Positions 6,574 through 59,025 of a stretch of 64,000 nt of DNA are shown piece after piece. Numbering within the stretch: the stretch's first letter is position 1; every line of letters starts with the position of its first letter. The position numbers and the translations under genes were made by a program. This stretch comes from Polyangiales bacterium (GTDB lineage: Bacteria > Myxococcota_A > Polyangia > Polyangiales > Houyiibacteriaceae). The notes under the pieces are model-generated. The model had not been told where the DNA came from. It searched no databases and worked only from the letters and a program-made list of their open reading frames with translations. The DNA lies in the NCBI GenBank assembly GCA_041576815.1, contig JBFGKE010000007.1:43311-107310 (forward strand), written 5' to 3'.

Positions 6574-7560
6574 ATGAACATCAGCAAACTAGCTTTAATC
6601 GCGCTACTCGGTGGCGCACTCATGGCCTTCGGCTGCGGCAGTGATTCGAACGGCGGCAACGGCGGCGCGGGCGGCGACGGCGGCTCTGGCGGCACCGCTG
6701 GTGGCGGCGGCACCGCTGGTGGCGGCGGCATGGCCGTGGCGTGCGAAGCGACCACGGAGACCTGCACTAACGGGGACATCGATCCCACGGACGAAAACTG
6801 CGTCCCTGCACTCGCGACTCCGCCCACCGCGGACGTCTGCGACGGCACGGAGAGCCTCGAGAATCCGGCCAGCTGCACCACGACGGGTGTCGTGGTCACC
6901 CACCAGCTCACGGCGGTTTCGATCTTCCCCGACTGCAACGGAGGCTACGACCTCGACGGCTGCAACGGCAACAGCTGCTCGCTTGGCTCACTCGCCCCCG
7001 ATGAGGGCATGGGCGGCGTCGACAACGCACTTGCGGGTCTTGCGCCAGTCCTCGTGGGCGTGGGCGGCAACCTGAGTGGCGTCAACCAGGCGTTCTACGA
7101 CGCGCTGTGCTCCGGTGTCATCAACATTCAGCTCAACGTCGACGCGAACGTCGACGAGGGCTGCGCGACGGTCGAGCTCGTGGTGGACGACGCCGCGGTC
7201 GGCACTGTGCTCTTGAACGTGGGGCCGCTCGACGTCGAGGCCGGTGCGGTTTGCGCCAGCGGCACGATCGGCGACCTCCCGATCTCGATCGGCGAGCCAG
7301 GCATGGCGGTCGACGGTGCGATTGCGAACAGCGTGATCCGCGTGTCGATCACCCCGACCGAGGGCTTCTCGAACGGCACGCTCGGCGGCACGGTGGACCA
7401 GGCCACCGCAGGCGCCATCGCCGACCTTCTCATCGATGGCGGTAGCGCGGTCGTCTCCCAGGTCCTCGACATCAACGACGCCCTCGTGGGCGACGCCAGC
7501 GCATCTTGTAACGCGCTGTCGCTGACGCTGACCATCGGCGGCGTCGCTCTCGTGCTCTAA
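6574..7560 (+). CDS. Lipoprotein with Gly-rich linker, unknown function
   Basis: AGGAG (6561-6565) precedes ATG 6574. Lipobox LMAFGCGS. Linker GGNGGAGGDGGSGGTAGGGGTAGGGG. G/C-dominated third codon positions. Confidence 0.7.
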   Translation: MNISKLALIALLGGALMAFGCGSDSNGGNGGAGGDGGSGGTAGGGGTAGGGGMAVACEATTETCTNGDIDPTDENCVPALATPPTADVCDGTESLENPASCTTTGVVVTHQLTAVSIFPDCNGGYDLDGCNGNSCSLGSLAPDEGMGGVDNALAGLAPVLVGVGGNLSGVNQAFYDALCSGVINIQLNVDANVDEGCATVELVVDDAAVGTVLLNVGPLDVEAGAVCASGTIGDLPISIGEPGMAVDGAIANSVIRVSITPTEGFSNGTLGGTVDQATAGAIADLLIDGGSAVVSQVLDINDALVGDASASCNALSLTLTIGGVALVL

Positions 7561-13591: not shown

Positions 13592-14408
13592 CGTGCGCAG
13601 CAATCGAGCAGTCCGCGGTCACGATCGGATCGCCCTCCGCATTCGCGGAATCCGACTTCGGACCGATCTGACTTCGTACGGTGATCAGCCGGCCCCGGTT
13701 TTCGGTGCGCGAGCGGAGCACCAGCGCGTCGGTTGCGAGGTCCCAGAGAAACACATCGACCGGATCGTGAAGCCGACTCTTGCCCTGCACGACGAGGAGC
13801 AGAAAGTAGTCTGCAGGGACGCGCGCCTCGAGCTCGGGAAGCTGACGTTCGATCGCGCGTCGGAGCTGCTCCTCCCGCACGGACAGGCGCCGCATGTCGT
13901 TGGTCTCGTCGGCCCGAGCGAGCCACTTTGCCGTCAGCACCTCGGGCACGTCCGAAAGGGCGTCGAGTGGAATGACCTCGAGCCCGAGGCAGGCGCCGAT
14001 CGCGTCCTCGTCCTCTGCTTGAATGGCCGCTTGGAGCGTCTCTTCGGAGCGGAGGTCGGACGCCGGGACCTTGAGATAGATCACCTTCTCCTCGTGCAGG
14101 GCGGACGGCCGCACCCCGTCTTCCACCAGGCGATTCGCGGCGCCTGATTTCGCGTCGAGCGTCTTTTGCACGAGGTCGCGACGCGTCGTCTCCAGGCTCG
14201 TGAGAACCGGCGCGACCCGCTCGGCGTGGAGAGCCTGGATGCGCGTGCGGAGCTGGTCGGCTCTCACCTTCTGACGCCAGAGGTATCCCCCGACGAGGAG
14301 AGCGGTGACGAGCGCGACCCATCCAATTCGCCGCCACGGCAGTCGCGGGCGGTATCGGTTGCGCGGAGCGCCTTCGAACTCGGCAGGCGTGAGCTCGGAC
14401 GGCTCCAT
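13542..14408 (-). CDS. Single-pass membrane-anchored protein of unknown function, last gene of the exbB-exbD-exbD operon
   Basis: Starts 10 nt downstream of exbD. Basic N-tail plus TM IGWVALVTALLVGGYLW. No Pro-rich spacer or TonB C-terminal motif recognised. Preferred over the overlapping Arg-rich ORF 13309..14337. Confidence 0.55.
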   Translation of the reverse strand: MEPSELTPAEFEGAPRNRYRPRLPWRRIGWVALVTALLVGGYLWRQKVRADQLRTRIQALHAERVAPVLTSLETTRRDLVQKTLDAKSGAANRLVEDGVRPSALHEEKVIYLKVPASDLRSEETLQAAIQAEDEDAIGACLGLEVIPLDALSDVPEVLTAKWLARADETNDMRRLSVREEQLRRAIERQLPELEARVPADYFLLLVVQGKSRLHDPVDVFLWDLATDALVLRSRTENRGRLITVRSQIGPKSDSANAEGDPIVTADCSIAAHVKAQLGEPTMDLATPD

Positions 14409-31294: not shown

Positions 31295-31332
31295 GGCACC
31301 GAAAAAGGGGACTGTCCCCTTTTTTCGGTGCC
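31295..31332. repeat. Palindromic element copy (GGCACCGAAAAAGGGGAC-T-GTCCCCTTTTTTCGGTGCC)
   Basis: 18-bp arms with one extra T. Core GGGGACTGTCCCC at 31307-31319. Lies in the 71-nt gap between two minus-strand genes. Same core as at 39.7 kb and 58.1 kb. Confidence 0.85.
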
Positions 31333-31334
31333 GA

Positions 31335-32012
31335 TTACTCCACGGCCGTCCTTCGCCATTTGCGGAATACGAGCACGCCGCCTGCGACGATCGCGACGGT
31401 GGCCATGATGATGATCGGCCAAAGACGTTCCCAGGGCCAACTCGAGAGAGGGTGTTTTTCGAGCCAAGCGGCAACGCGGACGCCGACGAGCGTCATGAGC
31501 AGCGTGAACGGCGCGACGCCGAGCACCGTGCCCGTGAGAAACGGTCCGACGTGGACTCGTGACACGCCGAGGGCCCACTGGACGGTTGGCGTCGTATAAA
31601 AAATGAGGCGGAGCAAGAGGACCGTGCGAAATCCGCGCGACTCGAGCCGATCGTCGAAGCGGCGAATTCTCTGCGGCAGTCGCTGCTGGATCCAGTCGCG
31701 GGCGATGAAGCGTGCGCCGGCGAACGCGAAGAGGCCGGTTCCAACCGTCCCAGCCCAGTTGAGGAGAAACGCCTCCGTGGGGCTCCAGATCAACGGCGCG
31801 CTCAATAAGAACACCAAGCCATTGACGCCAAACGGTTGCAGCACCGAATACGCGGCGATGAACAGCACGCCACCCCACGTGCCCGCTTCACGAAACCAAA
31901 CGCGCATCGTCGCAGGGTCGAAGCGTTCGTACGCCCCGCTCGTATAGATCCAGGCTACGAGCCCCGCCACGGCTGCGGCAAGCGCGATTTTCAGCCACGA
32001 CGTCCGGTCCAC
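31335..32012 (-). CDS. TVP38/TMEM64 (DedA-related) family membrane protein
   Basis: GTVGTGLFAFAGARFIARDWIQ...VLLLRLIFYTTPTVQWALGVSRV..FLTGTVLGVAP matches the TVP38/DedA core. Confidence 0.75.
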   Translation of the reverse strand: MDRTSWLKIALAAAVAGLVAWIYTSGAYERFDPATMRVWFREAGTWGGVLFIAAYSVLQPFGVNGLVFLLSAPLIWSPTEAFLLNWAGTVGTGLFAFAGARFIARDWIQQRLPQRIRRFDDRLESRGFRTVLLLRLIFYTTPTVQWALGVSRVHVGPFLTGTVLGVAPFTLLMTLVGVRVAAWLEKHPLSSWPWERLWPIIIMATVAIVAGGVLVFRKWRRTAVE

Positions 32013-37900: not shown

Positions 37901-38702
37901 GCTTCGCGGGCGCACGGTGGTCATCACCGGAGGCGCGGGCGGCATCGGGCGCGCGCTCGGCCGACGATTTGGTGCGGAAGGCGCGCGGATCGCCCTTCTC
38001 GACCTTCCATCGAGCCCACTGGACGCTGCGCAACGAGAGCTCGAGCTCGCTGGAATTCGAGCCACGGCGGTGCTTTGTGACATCACGGACGTCGAGCAGG
38101 TCAACCAAGCGATGACAGCAGTGCGCAACGCGTTCGGCAGCATCGACGTGCTGATCAACAACGCCGGAATCGTGCACCGAAGCGCATTCGAGCAAACGAA
38201 GCCCGAGGTGTTCCGCCGCGTGATGGAGGTCAACTTTTTCGGAGCGCTGCACTGCACCAAGGCGTGTTTGCCGGATCTCGTCGCTTGCAAAGGCTTGATC
38301 ATCGCGATCTCGAGCATCGCGGGGCTCGCGCCGCTCTACGGTCGCAGTGGGTATTCGGCCTCGAAGCACGCGATGCACGGGCTGTTCGAAAGCCTCGGGT
38401 CGGAGATGGCGACCCGCGGCGTCGGCGTGCTGATGGTTTGTCCCTCGTTCGTCGATTCCGGCTTGGAAGCCTCGACCCTCGGCGGTGACGGCGAACGCAT
38501 CGAGAGGCCGCGGTCGAAGGTCGGGCGGCTCGGCGACCCGGCCGACGTGGCCGACGCGGTCGTGAAGGCCGCACAAACCGGACGGCGGCGCCTCGTGTTG
38601 ACGCCCGTCGGGAAGACGAGCGCGCTCTTGTCGCGGCTCGCGCCGGGGCTTTACGAACGGCTGATGATTCGAAGCCTCCGCTCTGAGCTCGAAGACACCT
38701 GA
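37887..38702 (+). CDS. Classical short-chain dehydrogenase/reductase
   Basis: TVVITGGAGGIGRA, NNAG and YSASKHAM. TTG at 37887 was chosen (14-nt overlap with the upstream gene). ATG at 37767 would overlap by 134 nt. Confidence 0.75.
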   Translation: MARRELRGRTVVITGGAGGIGRALGRRFGAEGARIALLDLPSSPLDAAQRELELAGIRATAVLCDITDVEQVNQAMTAVRNAFGSIDVLINNAGIVHRSAFEQTKPEVFRRVMEVNFFGALHCTKACLPDLVACKGLIIAISSIAGLAPLYGRSGYSASKHAMHGLFESLGSEMATRGVGVLMVCPSFVDSGLEASTLGGDGERIERPRSKVGRLGDPADVADAVVKAAQTGRRRLVLTPVGKTSALLSRLAPGLYERLMIRSLRSELEDT

Positions 38703-38712
38703 GCGGGTACGT

Positions 38713-39705
38713 TTAGCTTCGCGGTGCAGCCAGGCCTCGTACGGGATGTGCGCGGTACGGCGCTTCCAACATCGCGATCTCTTCTTCGCCGAGCTCGATG
38801 TCGGCGGCTGCGATCGCGTCGTCGAGGTGCCTCAGCTTGGTGGCGCCCACGATTGGAGCGGTGACGACGGGGTTCGAAAGCAGCCAAGCGAGCGCAATGC
38901 GGGCGGGCGGCTCACCCCGCTTCTCGGCGACTCGTTTGACGGCCTCGACCACTTCCCAATCCGACGGCTGATCGTAGAGGATCTGGTCGAGCCCGTCGCT
39001 CGAAGACCGGCTCGTGGAGCCATCGCCGAGCTTGCTCCGTGTCCCGGCAAGCATGCCGCGTGCGAGCGGTGACCACGGAATCACTGCAACATTCTCCGCT
39101 TCGCAAAGCGGTAGCATCTCGCGCTCCTCTTCGCGGTAGACGAGGTTGTAGTGGTTCTGCATGGACACGAAGCGTGCCAAGCCCCTTGCATCCGACATCG
39201 AAAGAAGCTTTTGGAACTGCCACGCGTACATGGAGCTCGCGCCGATGTATCGCACCTTACCCTGCGTGACGAGGTGATCGAGGGCAGCCAGCATCTCGTC
39301 GAAGGGCGTGTCCGGATCGAGGCGGTGAATCTGGTAGAGATCGATCGTCTCGACGCCGAGGCGCCGCAGGCTGTCCTCGCAGGCCTGCTGGATGTGCTTT
39401 CGTGAAAGCCCGCCCATGTTCGGGCGATCGCTCATGGGGAAGAACACCTTGGTCGCAACGACAATCTCGTCGAGGTTGCCGTACTCGCGAAGCCAGCGCC
39501 CGGTGACCTCTTCGCTGACCCCGAGCGAATACATGTCCGCGGTGTCGAAGAAGTTGATTCCCGCCTCGATGGCCCGCCGGAAGAACGGAGCCGACGCCTC
39601 CGCATCGAGCACCCAGGGCCGCCAGTCGGGCGTCCCGTAGCTCATGCATCCGAGACAAATACGCGACACCGACACCCCGGTTCGACCCAACTGCGTATAC
39701 CTCAT
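38713..39705 (-). CDS. Aldo/keto reductase
   Basis: MRYTQLGRTGVSVSRICLGCMSYG..., DTADMYS, and VIPWSPLARGML. ATG at 39705 chosen. The track start at 39840 only adds the translated 33-bp repeats. Confidence 0.85.
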   Translation of the reverse strand: MRYTQLGRTGVSVSRICLGCMSYGTPDWRPWVLDAEASAPFFRRAIEAGINFFDTADMYSLGVSEEVTGRWLREYGNLDEIVVATKVFFPMSDRPNMGGLSRKHIQQACEDSLRRLGVETIDLYQIHRLDPDTPFDEMLAALDHLVTQGKVRYIGASSMYAWQFQKLLSMSDARGLARFVSMQNHYNLVYREEEREMLPLCEAENVAVIPWSPLARGMLAGTRSKLGDGSTSRSSSDGLDQILYDQPSDWEVVEAVKRVAEKRGEPPARIALAWLLSNPVVTAPIVGATKLRHLDDAIAAADIELGEEEIAMLEAPYRAHPVRGLAAPRS

Positions 39706-39720
39706 CGCGCCGATACTACC

Positions 39721-39820
39721 CGAATTCATATAGGGGACAGTCCCCTTTTCGCGCGAACTTATATAGGGGACAGTCCCCTTTTCGCGCGAACTTATATAGG
39801 GGACAGTCCCCTTTTCGCGT
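39721..39820. repeat. 33-bp tandem array (~2.9 copies), each unit carrying GGGGACAGTCCCC and TTCGCGCGAA palindromes
   Basis: Units start at 39726, 39759 and 39792 (TTATATAGGGGACAGTCCCCTTTTCGCGCGAAC). There is 1 mismatch between units 1 and 2, and unit 3 diverges in its last 5 nt. Cores at 39733-45, 39766-78 and 39799-811. Located in the divergent AKR/sulfotransferase intergenic region. Confidence 0.9.
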
Positions 39821-39851
39821 GCGGTGGGGGTCGCGTGCATACTGCGGCGGC

Positions 39852-40766
39852 ATGCCGAAAGTGATCTACATCATCGGGTCGGGGCGGAACGGCAGCACCC
39901 TGCTCTCGCGGCTCATGGGGCAGGTGCCGGGTTGCTGGGCCGTCGGCGAAATTCGAAGCATCTGGACGCGGATGATGGACGACAACTACTGCGGCTGCGG
40001 CGAGCCGTTCTCCCACTGCGCCTTTTGGTCGCGCGTCGTCGAGCGCGCCTTTCAAGACGAGCCAGGGTTCGATGCGGCACGTGTGCGCCAGCTTGCGCTC
40101 CGGCTCGATCGCATTCGGAGGCTGCCCACGGTAATGCGCACCGACGGCCCCGCCGAGCTCGCCGAGCTTCGCCGTCTGATCGCTCGGCTCTACCGCGCCG
40201 TGGCAGCCGAGTCAGGGTGCAGCGTGGTCGTGGACTCCTCGAAGACGTTTGGGCATCTCGCGATCCTCCAAGGCATTCCCGAGCTCGAAATCACGCCGGT
40301 CCACCTCCTTCGCGACCCTCGCGGCGTCGCCTATTCATGGGCCAAGAGCAAGACGCGGCCCGATCACCACCACGGCGCGGAGTACATGCCACGTTACAGC
40401 CCCACGAGGACCGCGGTCATGGGCTATCTCAATCTGCTCGCAGAGGTGGTGCCGGCCTCGAGGCCCCTGACCATACGATACGAGGACCTCGTCGAGTCGC
40501 CCCGTCCGGTGCTCGAGTCGATTCTCGACGCCGCCGGCGTTCGTCCGACCCCGCGCCTCGACTTTCTCCACGGACACACGGCGGAGCTTCGCCCGGTCCA
40601 CACGGTCGCCGGAAACCCCAGCCGCATGGCGTCCGGCCCGACGGAGCTCAAGCTCGACGAGGAGTGGCGGCGTTCGATGAAAACCTCGGAGCGCGTCGCG
40701 GTCACGTGCCTCTCGGCGCCGCTCCTGCTTCGGTACGGCTACTGGCGCCGCAGGCCATCCGGCTAG
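39852..40766 (+). CDS. Sulfotransferase-family protein
   Basis: KVIYIIGSGRNGSTLLSRLMG is a PAPS 5'-phosphosulfate-binding-loop-like motif. VHLLRDPRGVAYS is a 3'-phosphate-binding-like block. Confidence 0.7.
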   Translation: MPKVIYIIGSGRNGSTLLSRLMGQVPGCWAVGEIRSIWTRMMDDNYCGCGEPFSHCAFWSRVVERAFQDEPGFDAARVRQLALRLDRIRRLPTVMRTDGPAELAELRRLIARLYRAVAAESGCSVVVDSSKTFGHLAILQGIPELEITPVHLLRDPRGVAYSWAKSKTRPDHHHGAEYMPRYSPTRTAVMGYLNLLAEVVPASRPLTIRYEDLVESPRPVLESILDAAGVRPTPRLDFLHGHTAELRPVHTVAGNPSRMASGPTELKLDEEWRRSMKTSERVAVTCLSAPLLLRYGYWRRRPSG

Positions 40767-57492: not shown

Positions 57493-57506
57493 GGCGCCGT
57501 GAGCGA

Positions 57507-58223
57507 TCACTGCTCGACGCAATAAAGCCGGAGGAACGTCGAGCACCGTGGCGTGATGTTCTCCGTCCAGGTGAGGGTCGTCGATGCGCTGGCGCCGCAC
57601 AGCCCGATATTCGCCGCATTTTCCGTAGTGAAGCCCGCGCAGTCGTCGGTCAGAAACGATGCACCCGTGGCGAGCGTACCCGTCCAGACGTCTCCGGTGC
57701 GGCTGACCCCATTCGCGTCCAAGTCGATGGGCGCCATGATCGAGCCGTCGACCAAGTCATCCCAGTCGTTGGCCACCGTCGTACCGTCCACGAGGATATA
57801 GGGCTCTGCCGAACGCGCGAGCCGGTCGGCGACGGCAGACGTGCTCGTCGAAAGCCACGCACGGAACTCGCCGTCGAGACCGGCGGCCGTCGCCTGCGCG
57901 GCGCAAAGCGCATCTGCTCCGTCGATGCCACCCAAGTCGGCGGTCTGCACCGTATCCGTGATGAACATCCGGCGTGCCGACGCTCCCCCCATACCGCCAA
58001 CGCCACCCATACCGCCAACGCCGCCGTTGCCCCCAACGCCGCCCGCACCAGCACCACCGCTCCCGCCACCTTGTCCGCCAATACCGGAGTCCACCCCCGC
58101 ATCGACTCCAGCGTCAGAACCCGAACATGCCAAAACCAGCGCGAAAAAAAAGGGGACCGTCCCCTTTGTCCAGGAACGGTTCTGGAAAAGGGGACGGTCC
58201 CCTTTTTTTAGTCTGTTTCGCAT
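57507..58223 (-). CDS. Lipoprotein with Gly-rich linker and Cys-containing C-terminal domain ending LYCVEQ (DUF1554-like, tentative)
   Basis: ATG at 58223 gives MRNRLKKGDRPLFQNRSWTKGTVPFFFALVLACSG (lipobox LVLAC). There is no start codon between the repeats and the lipobox. G/C-rich third positions. Confidence 0.6.
   Translation of the reverse strand: MRNRLKKGDRPLFQNRSWTKGTVPFFFALVLACSGSDAGVDAGVDSGIGGQGGGSGGAGAGGVGGNGGVGGMGGVGGMGGASARRMFITDTVQTADLGGIDGADALCAAQATAAGLDGEFRAWLSTSTSAVADRLARSAEPYILVDGTTVANDWDDLVDGSIMAPIDLDANGVSRTGDVWTGTLATGASFLTDDCAGFTTENAANIGLCGASASTTLTWTENITPRCSTFLRLYCVEQ
58144..58209. repeat. Composite 66-nt palindrome containing two copies of the GGGGAC-N-GTCCCC element
   Basis: A8-GGGGACCGTCCCC (58152-58164)-TTTGTCCAGGAACGGTTCTGGAAAA-GGGGACGGTCCCC (58190-58202)-T7. 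The two halves are reverse complements apart from two 1-nt indels. Confidence 0.9.
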
Positions 58224-58260
58224 GCGGGGGGCTTCGCATGGATTGGGGGGTTGAACAAGG

Positions 58261-59025
58261 TTAGTGGGCGTTTTCAAAGGCGCTGCGGACGTCGAACTCG
58301 AGGCCTAGGGTTTCGAGCACGTCGTATAAGCAGACCAAATAGATGCCGAGGGCCAGAAAATTTCGGTGGAGGGCCACGCCCTGATCGCGGCAGGCCACGA
58401 ACGTGTCGTGGAAGCTCGCGTGAAAGGCGCTCGTCTCGAAGCGAACGCTTCTCTGGTCGCCGCTGCCGAGATGATTTCGGAGCGCATCACCGGAATCCTG
58501 GAGATTCAGCTGTTCCAATCCGTGCGCGAAGCGGGCGTCGTCGTCGAGATAGAACCCCGCGTATAGGTTACGAACCCCGTCGAGGAACTCGGGTTGCCAT
58601 TGCACGTAAAAAGCGCGCGGTTGCCACGCGAGCGTATTCCCGTCGGTCAGGCCAAAAGCCTCGGTGCGAAGGTCCAAGAGCGCGACGTCGCCCGCGAAGA
58701 TCTGCGCGAAGTAGATCTCTAGAATGCGGTGGCCTGCCTGCCGCTTTTCCCCGTCGGTGAGATCGGGCGCAGAGAGGCGTCGATTCGACTGTTCCGCCTC
58801 GAGGTCGACCTCGACACCGCGTGCCTGAAGCGAGCTCGCGATTTGGTCGCGTACGGCAGCAAACCGATCCGAGCTCGAGCCGTTGGCGATGAACTCCTTG
58901 CCCTGCGCGATGAGCGCCCGCATCGGCATGACGTCGAAGAGCGCGGGCGACGCGTAGTCGATGAACTGCGACCAGGAGGTCCCTTTCGCAGCGCGGCGGA
59001 TCATGTGGCGAACGCCTTTGGCCAT
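58261..59025 (-). CDS. Hypothetical protein
   Basis: 254-aa ORF with non-shadow composition (balanced D/E/K, G/C third positions). No motif recognised. Confidence 0.5.
   Translation of the reverse strand: MAKGVRHMIRRAAKGTSWSQFIDYASPALFDVMPMRALIAQGKEFIANGSSSDRFAAVRDQIASSLQARGVEVDLEAEQSNRRLSAPDLTDGEKRQAGHRILEIYFAQIFAGDVALLDLRTEAFGLTDGNTLAWQPRAFYVQWQPEFLDGVRNLYAGFYLDDDARFAHGLEQLNLQDSGDALRNHLGSGDQRSVRFETSAFHASFHDTFVACRDQGVALHRNFLALGIYLVCLYDVLETLGLEFDVRSAFENAH

Follow-up and report, generated by a model that had tools for sequence, protein, structure and literature searches.

REP/BIME-type repeats, such as REP of E. coli and SMAG of Stenotrophomonas, are imperfect palindromes of 35–40 nt with a GTAG-type head and a link to RAYT transposases. 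In contingency loci with promoter-proximal variable repeats, for example the TAAA tract of Neisseria nadA and the TA repeats of Haemophilus hif, the repeated units are 1–7 bp long. Mycobacterial MIRU-VNTRs are intergenic repeats within operons, placed between co-directional genes. The array of 33-bp units described here touches on each of these systems; it is a non-coding repeat which, though real, is of a fairly ordinary sort. The account that we favour, and hold to be somewhat probable as a whole, is that it is a non-coding, copy-variable tandem duplication of a 33-bp module that contains the genome's stereotyped terminator-type hairpin, stranded between divergent promoters and amplified by slippage.

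Tandem Repeats Finder (TRF) placed the array at positions 39721–39819 of the window (the whole 64-kb stretch of DNA analysed), with a period of 33 bp, 3.0 copies, 96% matches and a score of 184, by far the strongest tandem repeat of the window. It lies within the 146 nt that separate the start codon of an aldo/keto reductase gene (AKR; ATG at 39705, minus strand) from that of a sulfotransferase gene (ATG at 39852, plus strand). A preliminary description, made from the letters alone, had already reported a 33-bp array of three units in this divergent gap, upstream of both genes, and TRF and the sequence agree with it. Units 2 and 3 are identical (CGAACTTATATAGGGGACAGTCCCCTTTTCGCG), and unit 1 differs from them at two bases, 39725 and 39727. 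The earlier unit sequence was right about the repeats, which are real, and wrong about the start of unit 1, which reads TCATATA rather than TTATATA. The elements of the array are as follows.

39721–39753, 39754–39786 and 39787–39819, no strand: array units in the TRF register (TRF and sequence)
39733–39745, no strand: hairpin core GGGGACAGTCCCC of unit 1, closest of the three to AKR, ending 14 nt from the AKR −10-like box (exact match)
39766–39778, no strand: hairpin core GGGGACAGTCCCC of unit 2 (exact match)
39799–39811, no strand: hairpin core GGGGACAGTCCCC of unit 3 (exact match)
39748–39757, no strand: junction palindrome TTCGCGCGAA of units 1/2 (unit end TTCGCG plus next unit start CGAA)
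39781–39790, no strand: junction palindrome TTCGCGCGAA of units 2/3 (unit end TTCGCG plus next unit start CGAA)

Two perfect palindromes had been assigned to each unit. The first, GGGGACAGTCCCC, stands, with a 6+1+6 geometry in which the central base is unpaired; the second, TTCGCGCGAA, is a mere by-product of the unit junction and is missing in a single-copy allele of the locus (assembly L001, below). Allowing up to two mismatches, GGGGACAGTCCCC gave 13 strand-matches in the window, where 2.1 were expected, a count reached by none of 100 shuffles. The fold of an array unit is weak (−8.5 kcal/mol), with a stem of 6 bp and a loop of 3 nt; on the plus strand the stem is followed by TTTT only, and on the minus strand the flank reads TATATAA. 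Folds of the whole array as RNA were strongly negative (z = −5.2 and −4.5) and were dropped as trivial, because tandem palindromes pair with one another. Rfam gave no match in the whole window at gathering thresholds, and assignment of the array to a known RNA family was rejected, the matches to it being at chance level (E 0.65 to 7).

The array is crossed by an open reading frame. On the minus strand, the longest ORF of the region (38713–39840, 375 aa) reads REKGTVPYISS three times and then MRYTQLG, the methionine of which is residue 46 (M46). This ORF was divided into two parts.

38713–39705, minus strand: aldo/keto reductase CDS of 330 aa with its true start at MRYTQLG (Pfam PF00248, E = 1e-77; invariant M46)
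39706–39840, minus strand: spurious in-frame ORF extension of 45 codons through the array (codon-position GC; absent from homologues called at the conserved Met)

An open frame with a period of 11 codons is what would be seen if the repeat were translated as a genuine N-terminal extension of AKR, REKGTVPYISS × n. Several observations make this reading vanishingly improbable. Within the 375-aa ORF, the Pfam AKR domain does not start until residue 60, 14 residues past M46. M46 itself was invariant in 15 aligned sequences (14 homologues and the window AKR); nine of the 14 homologues were called from it, with lengths of 330–333 aa and without the extension, which was common to two conspecific calls only within the aligned set. 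Most of the best 120 AKR homologues are 330 aa long. GC by codon position was 0.49/0.58/0.62 in the extension versus 0.65/0.46/0.79 in the AKR gene, so that the extension lacks coding bias, and a second minus-strand frame is likewise open across the array, from which it follows that an open frame there means little. The conserved −10-like box of AKR (below) also falls within the putative coding extension. A coding extension is effectively excluded by the starts of the orthologues, the boundary of the Pfam domain and GC by codon position: REKGTVPYISS × 3 is an annotation artefact and the array is non-coding. This is what the preliminary description had claimed, and the proposed look at whether AKR orthologues start at MRYTQLG (nine do by their own calls) and the third-position GC (0.62 vs 0.79) bear it out.

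It had also been foreseen that automated annotation would fall into the same error. The extension is called as coding in three conspecific public assemblies, L001, L002 and L003, with AKR products of 353, 364 and 375 aa, the 11-residue steps arising because the assemblies hold one, two and three units. The locus is an annotation trap in which an in-frame intergenic VNTR lengthens the AKR protein by 23, 34 or 45 residues. In protein databases, a single AKR orthologue is consequently split into entries of 353, 364 and 375 aa, next to an under-call of 310 aa at a gene with a GTG start (see L174, below). Copy numbers in the conspecific assemblies were as follows.

L001 (GCA_041615295.1): 1 unit, 99.93–100% identity to the window
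L002 (GCA_041607995.1): 2 units, 97.9% identity to the window
L003 (GCA_041638475.1): 3 units, 99.85% identity to the window
Window: 3 units, reference

Comparison of repeat copy number across assemblies, suggested earlier as a check, thus returned one, two and three units in conspecifics. A scan of metagenomes with a flank-plus-unit pattern matched a sole contig, L006, which is the same as L005 (a related species, below). The copy numbers come from four MAG assemblies made from short reads, in which tandem repeats may be collapsed, and by this comparison the array is a probable VNTR unless the assembler collapsed copies. It could be argued that the true state is fixed, for example at three units, and that the short alleles are collapsed de Bruijn loops: every source is a short-read metagenome assembly, and, reasoning from the sequence, about 92 bp are perfectly periodic, so that a k of 55 could lose one unit. 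Collapse from three units to one would require k below about 27, however, and L001 differs from the window by a clean, in-register deletion of 66 bp. L002 is a distinct strain, and at a related locus, L174, duplication at the AKR site is seen as a real evolutionary event. For these reasons we regard assembly artefact as a rather unlikely explanation of the copy differences as a whole; assembly collapse could explain part of the polymorphism. The names attached to its close AKR homologues place the uncultured lineage in Myxococcota (Polyangiales-like), and the array could be of use as a marker of strains within it.

The edges of the first and last units are preserved across the 1-, 2- and 3-copy alleles, and the −10-like boxes of both genes are identical in these alleles together with their proximal upstream sequence. 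Since the outer unit edges are preserved, copy changes spare both core promoters, and the variation is probably close to neutral. The two boxes are the following.

39713–39718, minus strand: −10-like TAGTAT, 7 nt upstream of the AKR ATG (conserved across relatives; predicted leaderless promoter)
39838–39843, plus strand: −10-like CATACT, 8 nt upstream of the sulfotransferase ATG (conserved in L005; weaker than the AKR box)

The pattern TAGTAT-N6/7-start is kept in the window and in the related loci L004, L005, L122, L126 and L174 despite diverged flanks. No Shine-Dalgarno sequence was found upstream of the AKR ATG or the sulfotransferase ATG, and TAnnnT occurs 6–8 nt before plausible starts seven times in the window vs 0–2 times at other spacings. 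From these two observations we infer leaderless promoters for both genes, TAGTAT-N7-ATG of AKR being a probable one, and the spacing enrichment suggests that leaderless mRNAs are common in the lineage, a pointer that may be of wider use. TAnnnT-type starts without a Shine-Dalgarno sequence were noted at 14408(−), 25362(−), 31263(−), 32012(−), 41455(−), 49673(+) and 56365(−), and also at 39705(−). A consensus scan found no sigma-70 consensus promoters in the AKR/sulfotransferase gap, and the −35 positions that go with the two inferred −10 boxes match the consensus poorly. A literature search on leaderless transcription in Myxococcus returned nothing usable.

The position of the array immediately upstream of both inferred promoters, and the presence of one, two or three units in assemblies with flanks up to 99.9–100% identical, would suit a contingency locus in which slippage tunes one or both divergent genes, for example by altering how far apart the promoters are, how many weak terminators are present or the A-runs upstream. 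Neither inferred promoter has repeats in its −10/−35 spacer, however, so that classical spacer-length phase variation is inapplicable, and both proximal contexts are unchanged by copy number. The sample holds four assemblies only, and similar hairpin arrays are present at gene 3′ ends elsewhere, which suggests passive duplication. A contingency locus is accordingly an unlikely reading. The slippage idea of the preliminary description survives as far as the copy difference is concerned (1, 2 and 3 units) and fails with respect to promoter switching of the spacer type. Were copy number to affect expression, the array would be a rare long-unit promoter VNTR outside pathogens.

The hairpin of the array has relatives in the window. 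A script requiring a perfect stem of at least 5 bp with at least 4 G–C pairs, a loop of 3–8 nt and then at least 4 T found hairpin plus T-run sites at only five loci in the 64 kb, all with the GGGGACAGTCCCC stem, and those outside the array are at gene 3′ ends (31307, 58152 and 58190).

31295–31332, no strand: family copy, 38-nt palindrome GGCACCGAAAAAGGGGACTGTCCCCTTTTTTCGGTGCC, 16 nt past the stop of gene 31335–32012 (minus strand); −28.1 kcal/mol, z = −7.1
58149–58167, no strand: family copy AAAGGGGACCGTCCCCTTT, in the gap downstream of gene 58261–59025 (minus strand); terminator-like in the consensus scan
58187–58205, no strand: family copy AAAGGGGACGGTCCCCTTT, 38 bp from the 58149 copy; terminator-like on both strands in the consensus scan

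The script-detected part of the 38-nt palindrome is 31304–31322. Family copies fold at −10.9 to −28.1 kcal/mol, and those at 58149–58211 have a U-rich tract (at least 5 of 8) after the stem. A copy is also present in L006 (at 12851) at the position orthologous to 31295–31332. Made up of an A-run, GGGGAC-W-GTCCCC and a T-run, the core of the module is, by its placement here and in other phyla (below), a predicted terminator-type 3′-end hairpin and not a promoter motif.

Some further features of these regions were recorded. In the L005/L006 species, the hairpin that lies at the orthologous site, past the VTT-domain gene, is followed by TATATAATTT where the window has a T-run. This flank at L006 12851 is the variant flank of the AKR locus of that species, and the hairpin-plus-TATAAT variant occurs at two loci in one genome. 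The hairpin pair 58149–58205 is adjoined by an 18-bp × 3.2 tandem repeat at 57988–58044 (CCCATACCGCCAACGCCG), held in a gap of about 770 bp (57500–58260) without a convincing coding frame. At 6651–6730, GGC-rich 9/18-bp repeats are translated into a Gly-rich linker, GGNGGAGGDGGSGGTAGGGGTAGGGG, near the N-terminus of ORF 6574–7560, a probable secreted or lipoprotein-like protein.

The hairpin was also found far outside the lineage. A collection of species-representative genomes was scanned with GGGGACNGTCCCCTTTT and yielded at least 115 loci (L007–L121), and the matches listed include Planctomycetota, Acidobacteriota, Aminicenantes, Omnitrophota, Coriobacteriia, Bacteroidota, Nitrospira and Myxococcota. 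The consensus there is symmetric, A4–5 GGGGAC W GTCCCC T4–5, the A-run not having been demanded by the search pattern. Among the matches listed, the stem is present in 152 of 184 hairpin plus T-run sites. With a crude gene model, and with clusters within 120 bp counted as one, 67 sites had clear flanking genes among the matches listed: 34 between tandem genes, mostly at most 30 nt past the upstream stop, 25 between convergent and 8 between divergent genes. The count was restricted to these 67 because a further 36 sites that the crude model put inside ORFs probably reflect ORF over-extension of the kind seen at the array, and they were set aside. Tandem hairpin arrays of 2–5 copies with a period of 14–92 bp were present in 14 of the 115 loci among the matches listed; these, together with L174, indicate that hairpin modules duplicate readily.

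As side observations, A4-GGGGACWGTCCCC-T4 appears in many phyla, often several times per 8 kb, with outer flanks that are variable yet complementary, and examples of its repetition are L026 6344–6484, L074 7908–8000 and L050 2248–2345. In Myxococcota-type MAGs a recurrent C-N-AGGGGTTAA follows the hairpin (L016, L036, L062, L065, L075, L094, L102, L108, L116 and L118); in some cases two hairpins enclose an inverted pair of it, GGGTTAA…TTAACCC.

Such a distribution might be taken for a special cross-phylum element with a shared factor. This idea was weakened by viral contigs, in which two control palindromes of the same architecture were commoner (27 and 15 stretches vs 3 for A4-GGGGACWGTCCCC-T4). 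The controls matched the GGGGACWGTCCCC hairpin in central A/T bias and in multiplicity within single genomes. They point to short bidirectional terminators as a generic class, in which the stereotypy is specific to each genome. One of them, AAAGGGGTCNGACCCCTTT, has six or more copies in a single 37-kb viral contig (L159–L173, e.g. IMGVR_UViG_2596583602_000001). Such multiplicity shows reuse of one stereotyped putative terminator hairpin per genome to be a general habit, and the simplest reading is that the GGGGACWGTCCCC hairpin would be an instance of generic short bidirectional terminators, of which genomes tend to reuse one stem. The wider pointer is that this genome and many others appear to reuse one short bidirectional-terminator hairpin, often tandem-duplicated. 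A literature search on palindrome strings and a conserved terminator hairpin returned irrelevant primer matches only.

Orthologous loci were retrieved via AKR homologues and compared in the AKR-sense orientation. In L122, the AKR of which is 85% identical, a short-chain dehydrogenase/reductase-type gene (SDR) and AKR are in tandem and the intervening sequence reads TAG…AAAAAGGGGACTGTCCCCTTTTT-14 nt-TAGTAT-N7-ATG; this orthologous hairpin has the make-up of a canonical bidirectional terminator and is predicted to be one. The element follows the SDR stop codon in both L122 and L174, and the spacing from hairpin to TAGTAT is 14 nt in the window, L005, L122 and L174 and 13 nt in L004. On the AKR side, the T-run has become TATACAAT in L004, TATATAAT in L005, TATGTAAT in L174 and TATATGAAT in the window; the T-run of the opposite strand is retained in all four. 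The gene on the other side of the array is the following.

39852–40766, plus strand: sulfotransferase CDS of 304 aa (Pfam PF13469; same start called in L001, L002 and L005)

This gene is present in the species of the window and in L005 only, and its stop overlaps the stop of the convergent SDR by 4 nt (40763–40766). As it is absent from five related loci (L004, L122, L123, L126 and L174), where the SDR is directly followed by AKR, it represents a lineage-specific inverted insertion between the SDR and the hairpin. In L174, two diverged tandem hairpin units with a 35-bp offset lie upstream of AKR (2860–2935), which means that duplication at the AKR-upstream site occurred more than once. The AKR of L174 starts with GTG, and the gene caller took an internal Met (310 aa), an annotation error in the reverse direction. 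The single copy of L005 is closer to units 2 and 3 of the window than to unit 1, a pattern consistent with an early duplication and with expansion and contraction in more recent times.

The following history may be proposed. In the ancestor, the hairpin would have stood between co-oriented SDR and AKR genes as a bidirectional terminator, 14 nt upstream of the AKR −10 box. Insertion of the sulfotransferase in the opposite orientation would have left it between two divergent promoters, where the AKR-sense T-run presumably decayed to TATATAA and the plus-strand T-run survived. One, two or three copies could then have arisen as hairpin-containing units slipped or recombined unequally, and the hairpin itself may have promoted the slipped-strand mispairing or unequal recombination. 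The locus would be an example of a terminator hairpin stranded by gene insertion and then amplified.

What the units may still do depends on the transcripts that reach them. The plus-strand SDR at the end of the upstream operon stops at 38702 and the minus-strand AKR at 38713, the two being convergent with their stops 10 nt apart. Between 38702 and the array, the script detected no hairpin on the plus strand and the consensus scan no convincing terminator-like site. Mutual antisense read-through between this SDR and AKR is likely on this layout: as the operon ending at 38702 is without a terminator of its own, its transcripts probably read antisense through AKR, and with no earlier plus-strand hairpin the array would be the first hairpin with a T-run that they meet. 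At most, the units may serve as a weak plus-strand terminator or insulator that stops read-through before the sulfotransferase; more hairpin copies could terminate more efficiently, and the units may act besides as variable spacer DNA upstream of both promoters. Against termination stand the four T after a 6-bp stem of −8.5 kcal/mol and the 5′ divergent location, which is atypical for a terminator. The consensus terminator scan found none at 39400–40100, and the array units are without a U-rich tract (at least 5 of 8) after the stem, so that the terminator or insulator role is tentative.

Loci that are only about 76–81% identical to the window overall still have the 13-nt palindrome, at a conserved distance from the AKR −10 box, even though the AKR-side T-run is lost. 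Such conservation could reflect a promoter-linked function, for instance protein binding or an UP-like A-run, and not termination. The preliminary description had suggested cooperative binding by a dimeric regulator. On this reading the array is an operator, GGGGACAGTCCCC being a candidate site for a dimeric transcription factor and the 33-bp period (about 3.1 helical turns) allowing cooperative control of AKR and sulfotransferase. The perfect 6+1+6 palindrome would agree with this, as would its overlap with the inferred AKR −35 region at a spacing conserved in five species and its persistence although the AKR-side T-run is gone. The same palindrome, however, is present at the 3′ ends of unrelated genes of the window and, across many phyla, mostly just past stop codons or between convergent genes. 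The six flanking ORFs (Pfam) and the L003 gene calls next to the locus contain no regulator gene. Moreover, the spacing to the sulfotransferase −10 box varies (17 nt in L005 vs 26 nt in the window), and at 31307 the −10-like box of the next gene is about 31 nt away, not 14. The idea of a dimeric regulator is not supported, in view of the copies at unrelated 3′ ends and of the lack of a regulator gene among these ORFs and calls, and an operator array seems improbable to us.

A combined possibility is that the array works as a tunable switch, in which one to three hairpins alter antisense insulation or recruit a palindrome-binding factor at the divergent leaderless promoters; we give it little credence. 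If it were true, AKR and sulfotransferase would be under contingency-type control in uncultured marine Myxococcota by means of a recycled terminator.

The favoured account of a stranded and amplified terminator-type module can be set against the known systems. With intrinsic bidirectional terminators the array shares a short G+C-rich hairpin between an A-run and a T-run, and the family copies at 31295–31332 and 58149–58205 and the L122 orthologue lie directly past stop codons, as such terminators do. The array units, in contrast, are without one T-run and have 4 T on the other side, and they form tandem, near-identical units in a divergent 5′ region. The likeness to REP/BIME elements consists in one stereotyped palindrome at several intergenic sites, singly, in pairs or in small clusters and for the most part past gene ends, whereas the hairpin copies of the window are without the GTAG head, have the look of a minimal terminator and occupy four loci in 64 kb. 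Contingency loci also have a tract upstream of the promoter or promoters and a copy number that differs between close strains, but the unit here is 33 bp long, is outside the −10/−35 spacer and ranges only from one to three copies. MIRU-VNTRs resemble the array in being intergenic repeats of tens of bases that are strain-variable, have a unit that is a multiple of three and are read through by ORF callers; they belong to another phylum and have no sequence relation to the array, which is flanked by divergent genes and contains a terminator-type hairpin. The array is best classed as an intergenic VNTR that has a terminator-type palindromic repeat as its building block.
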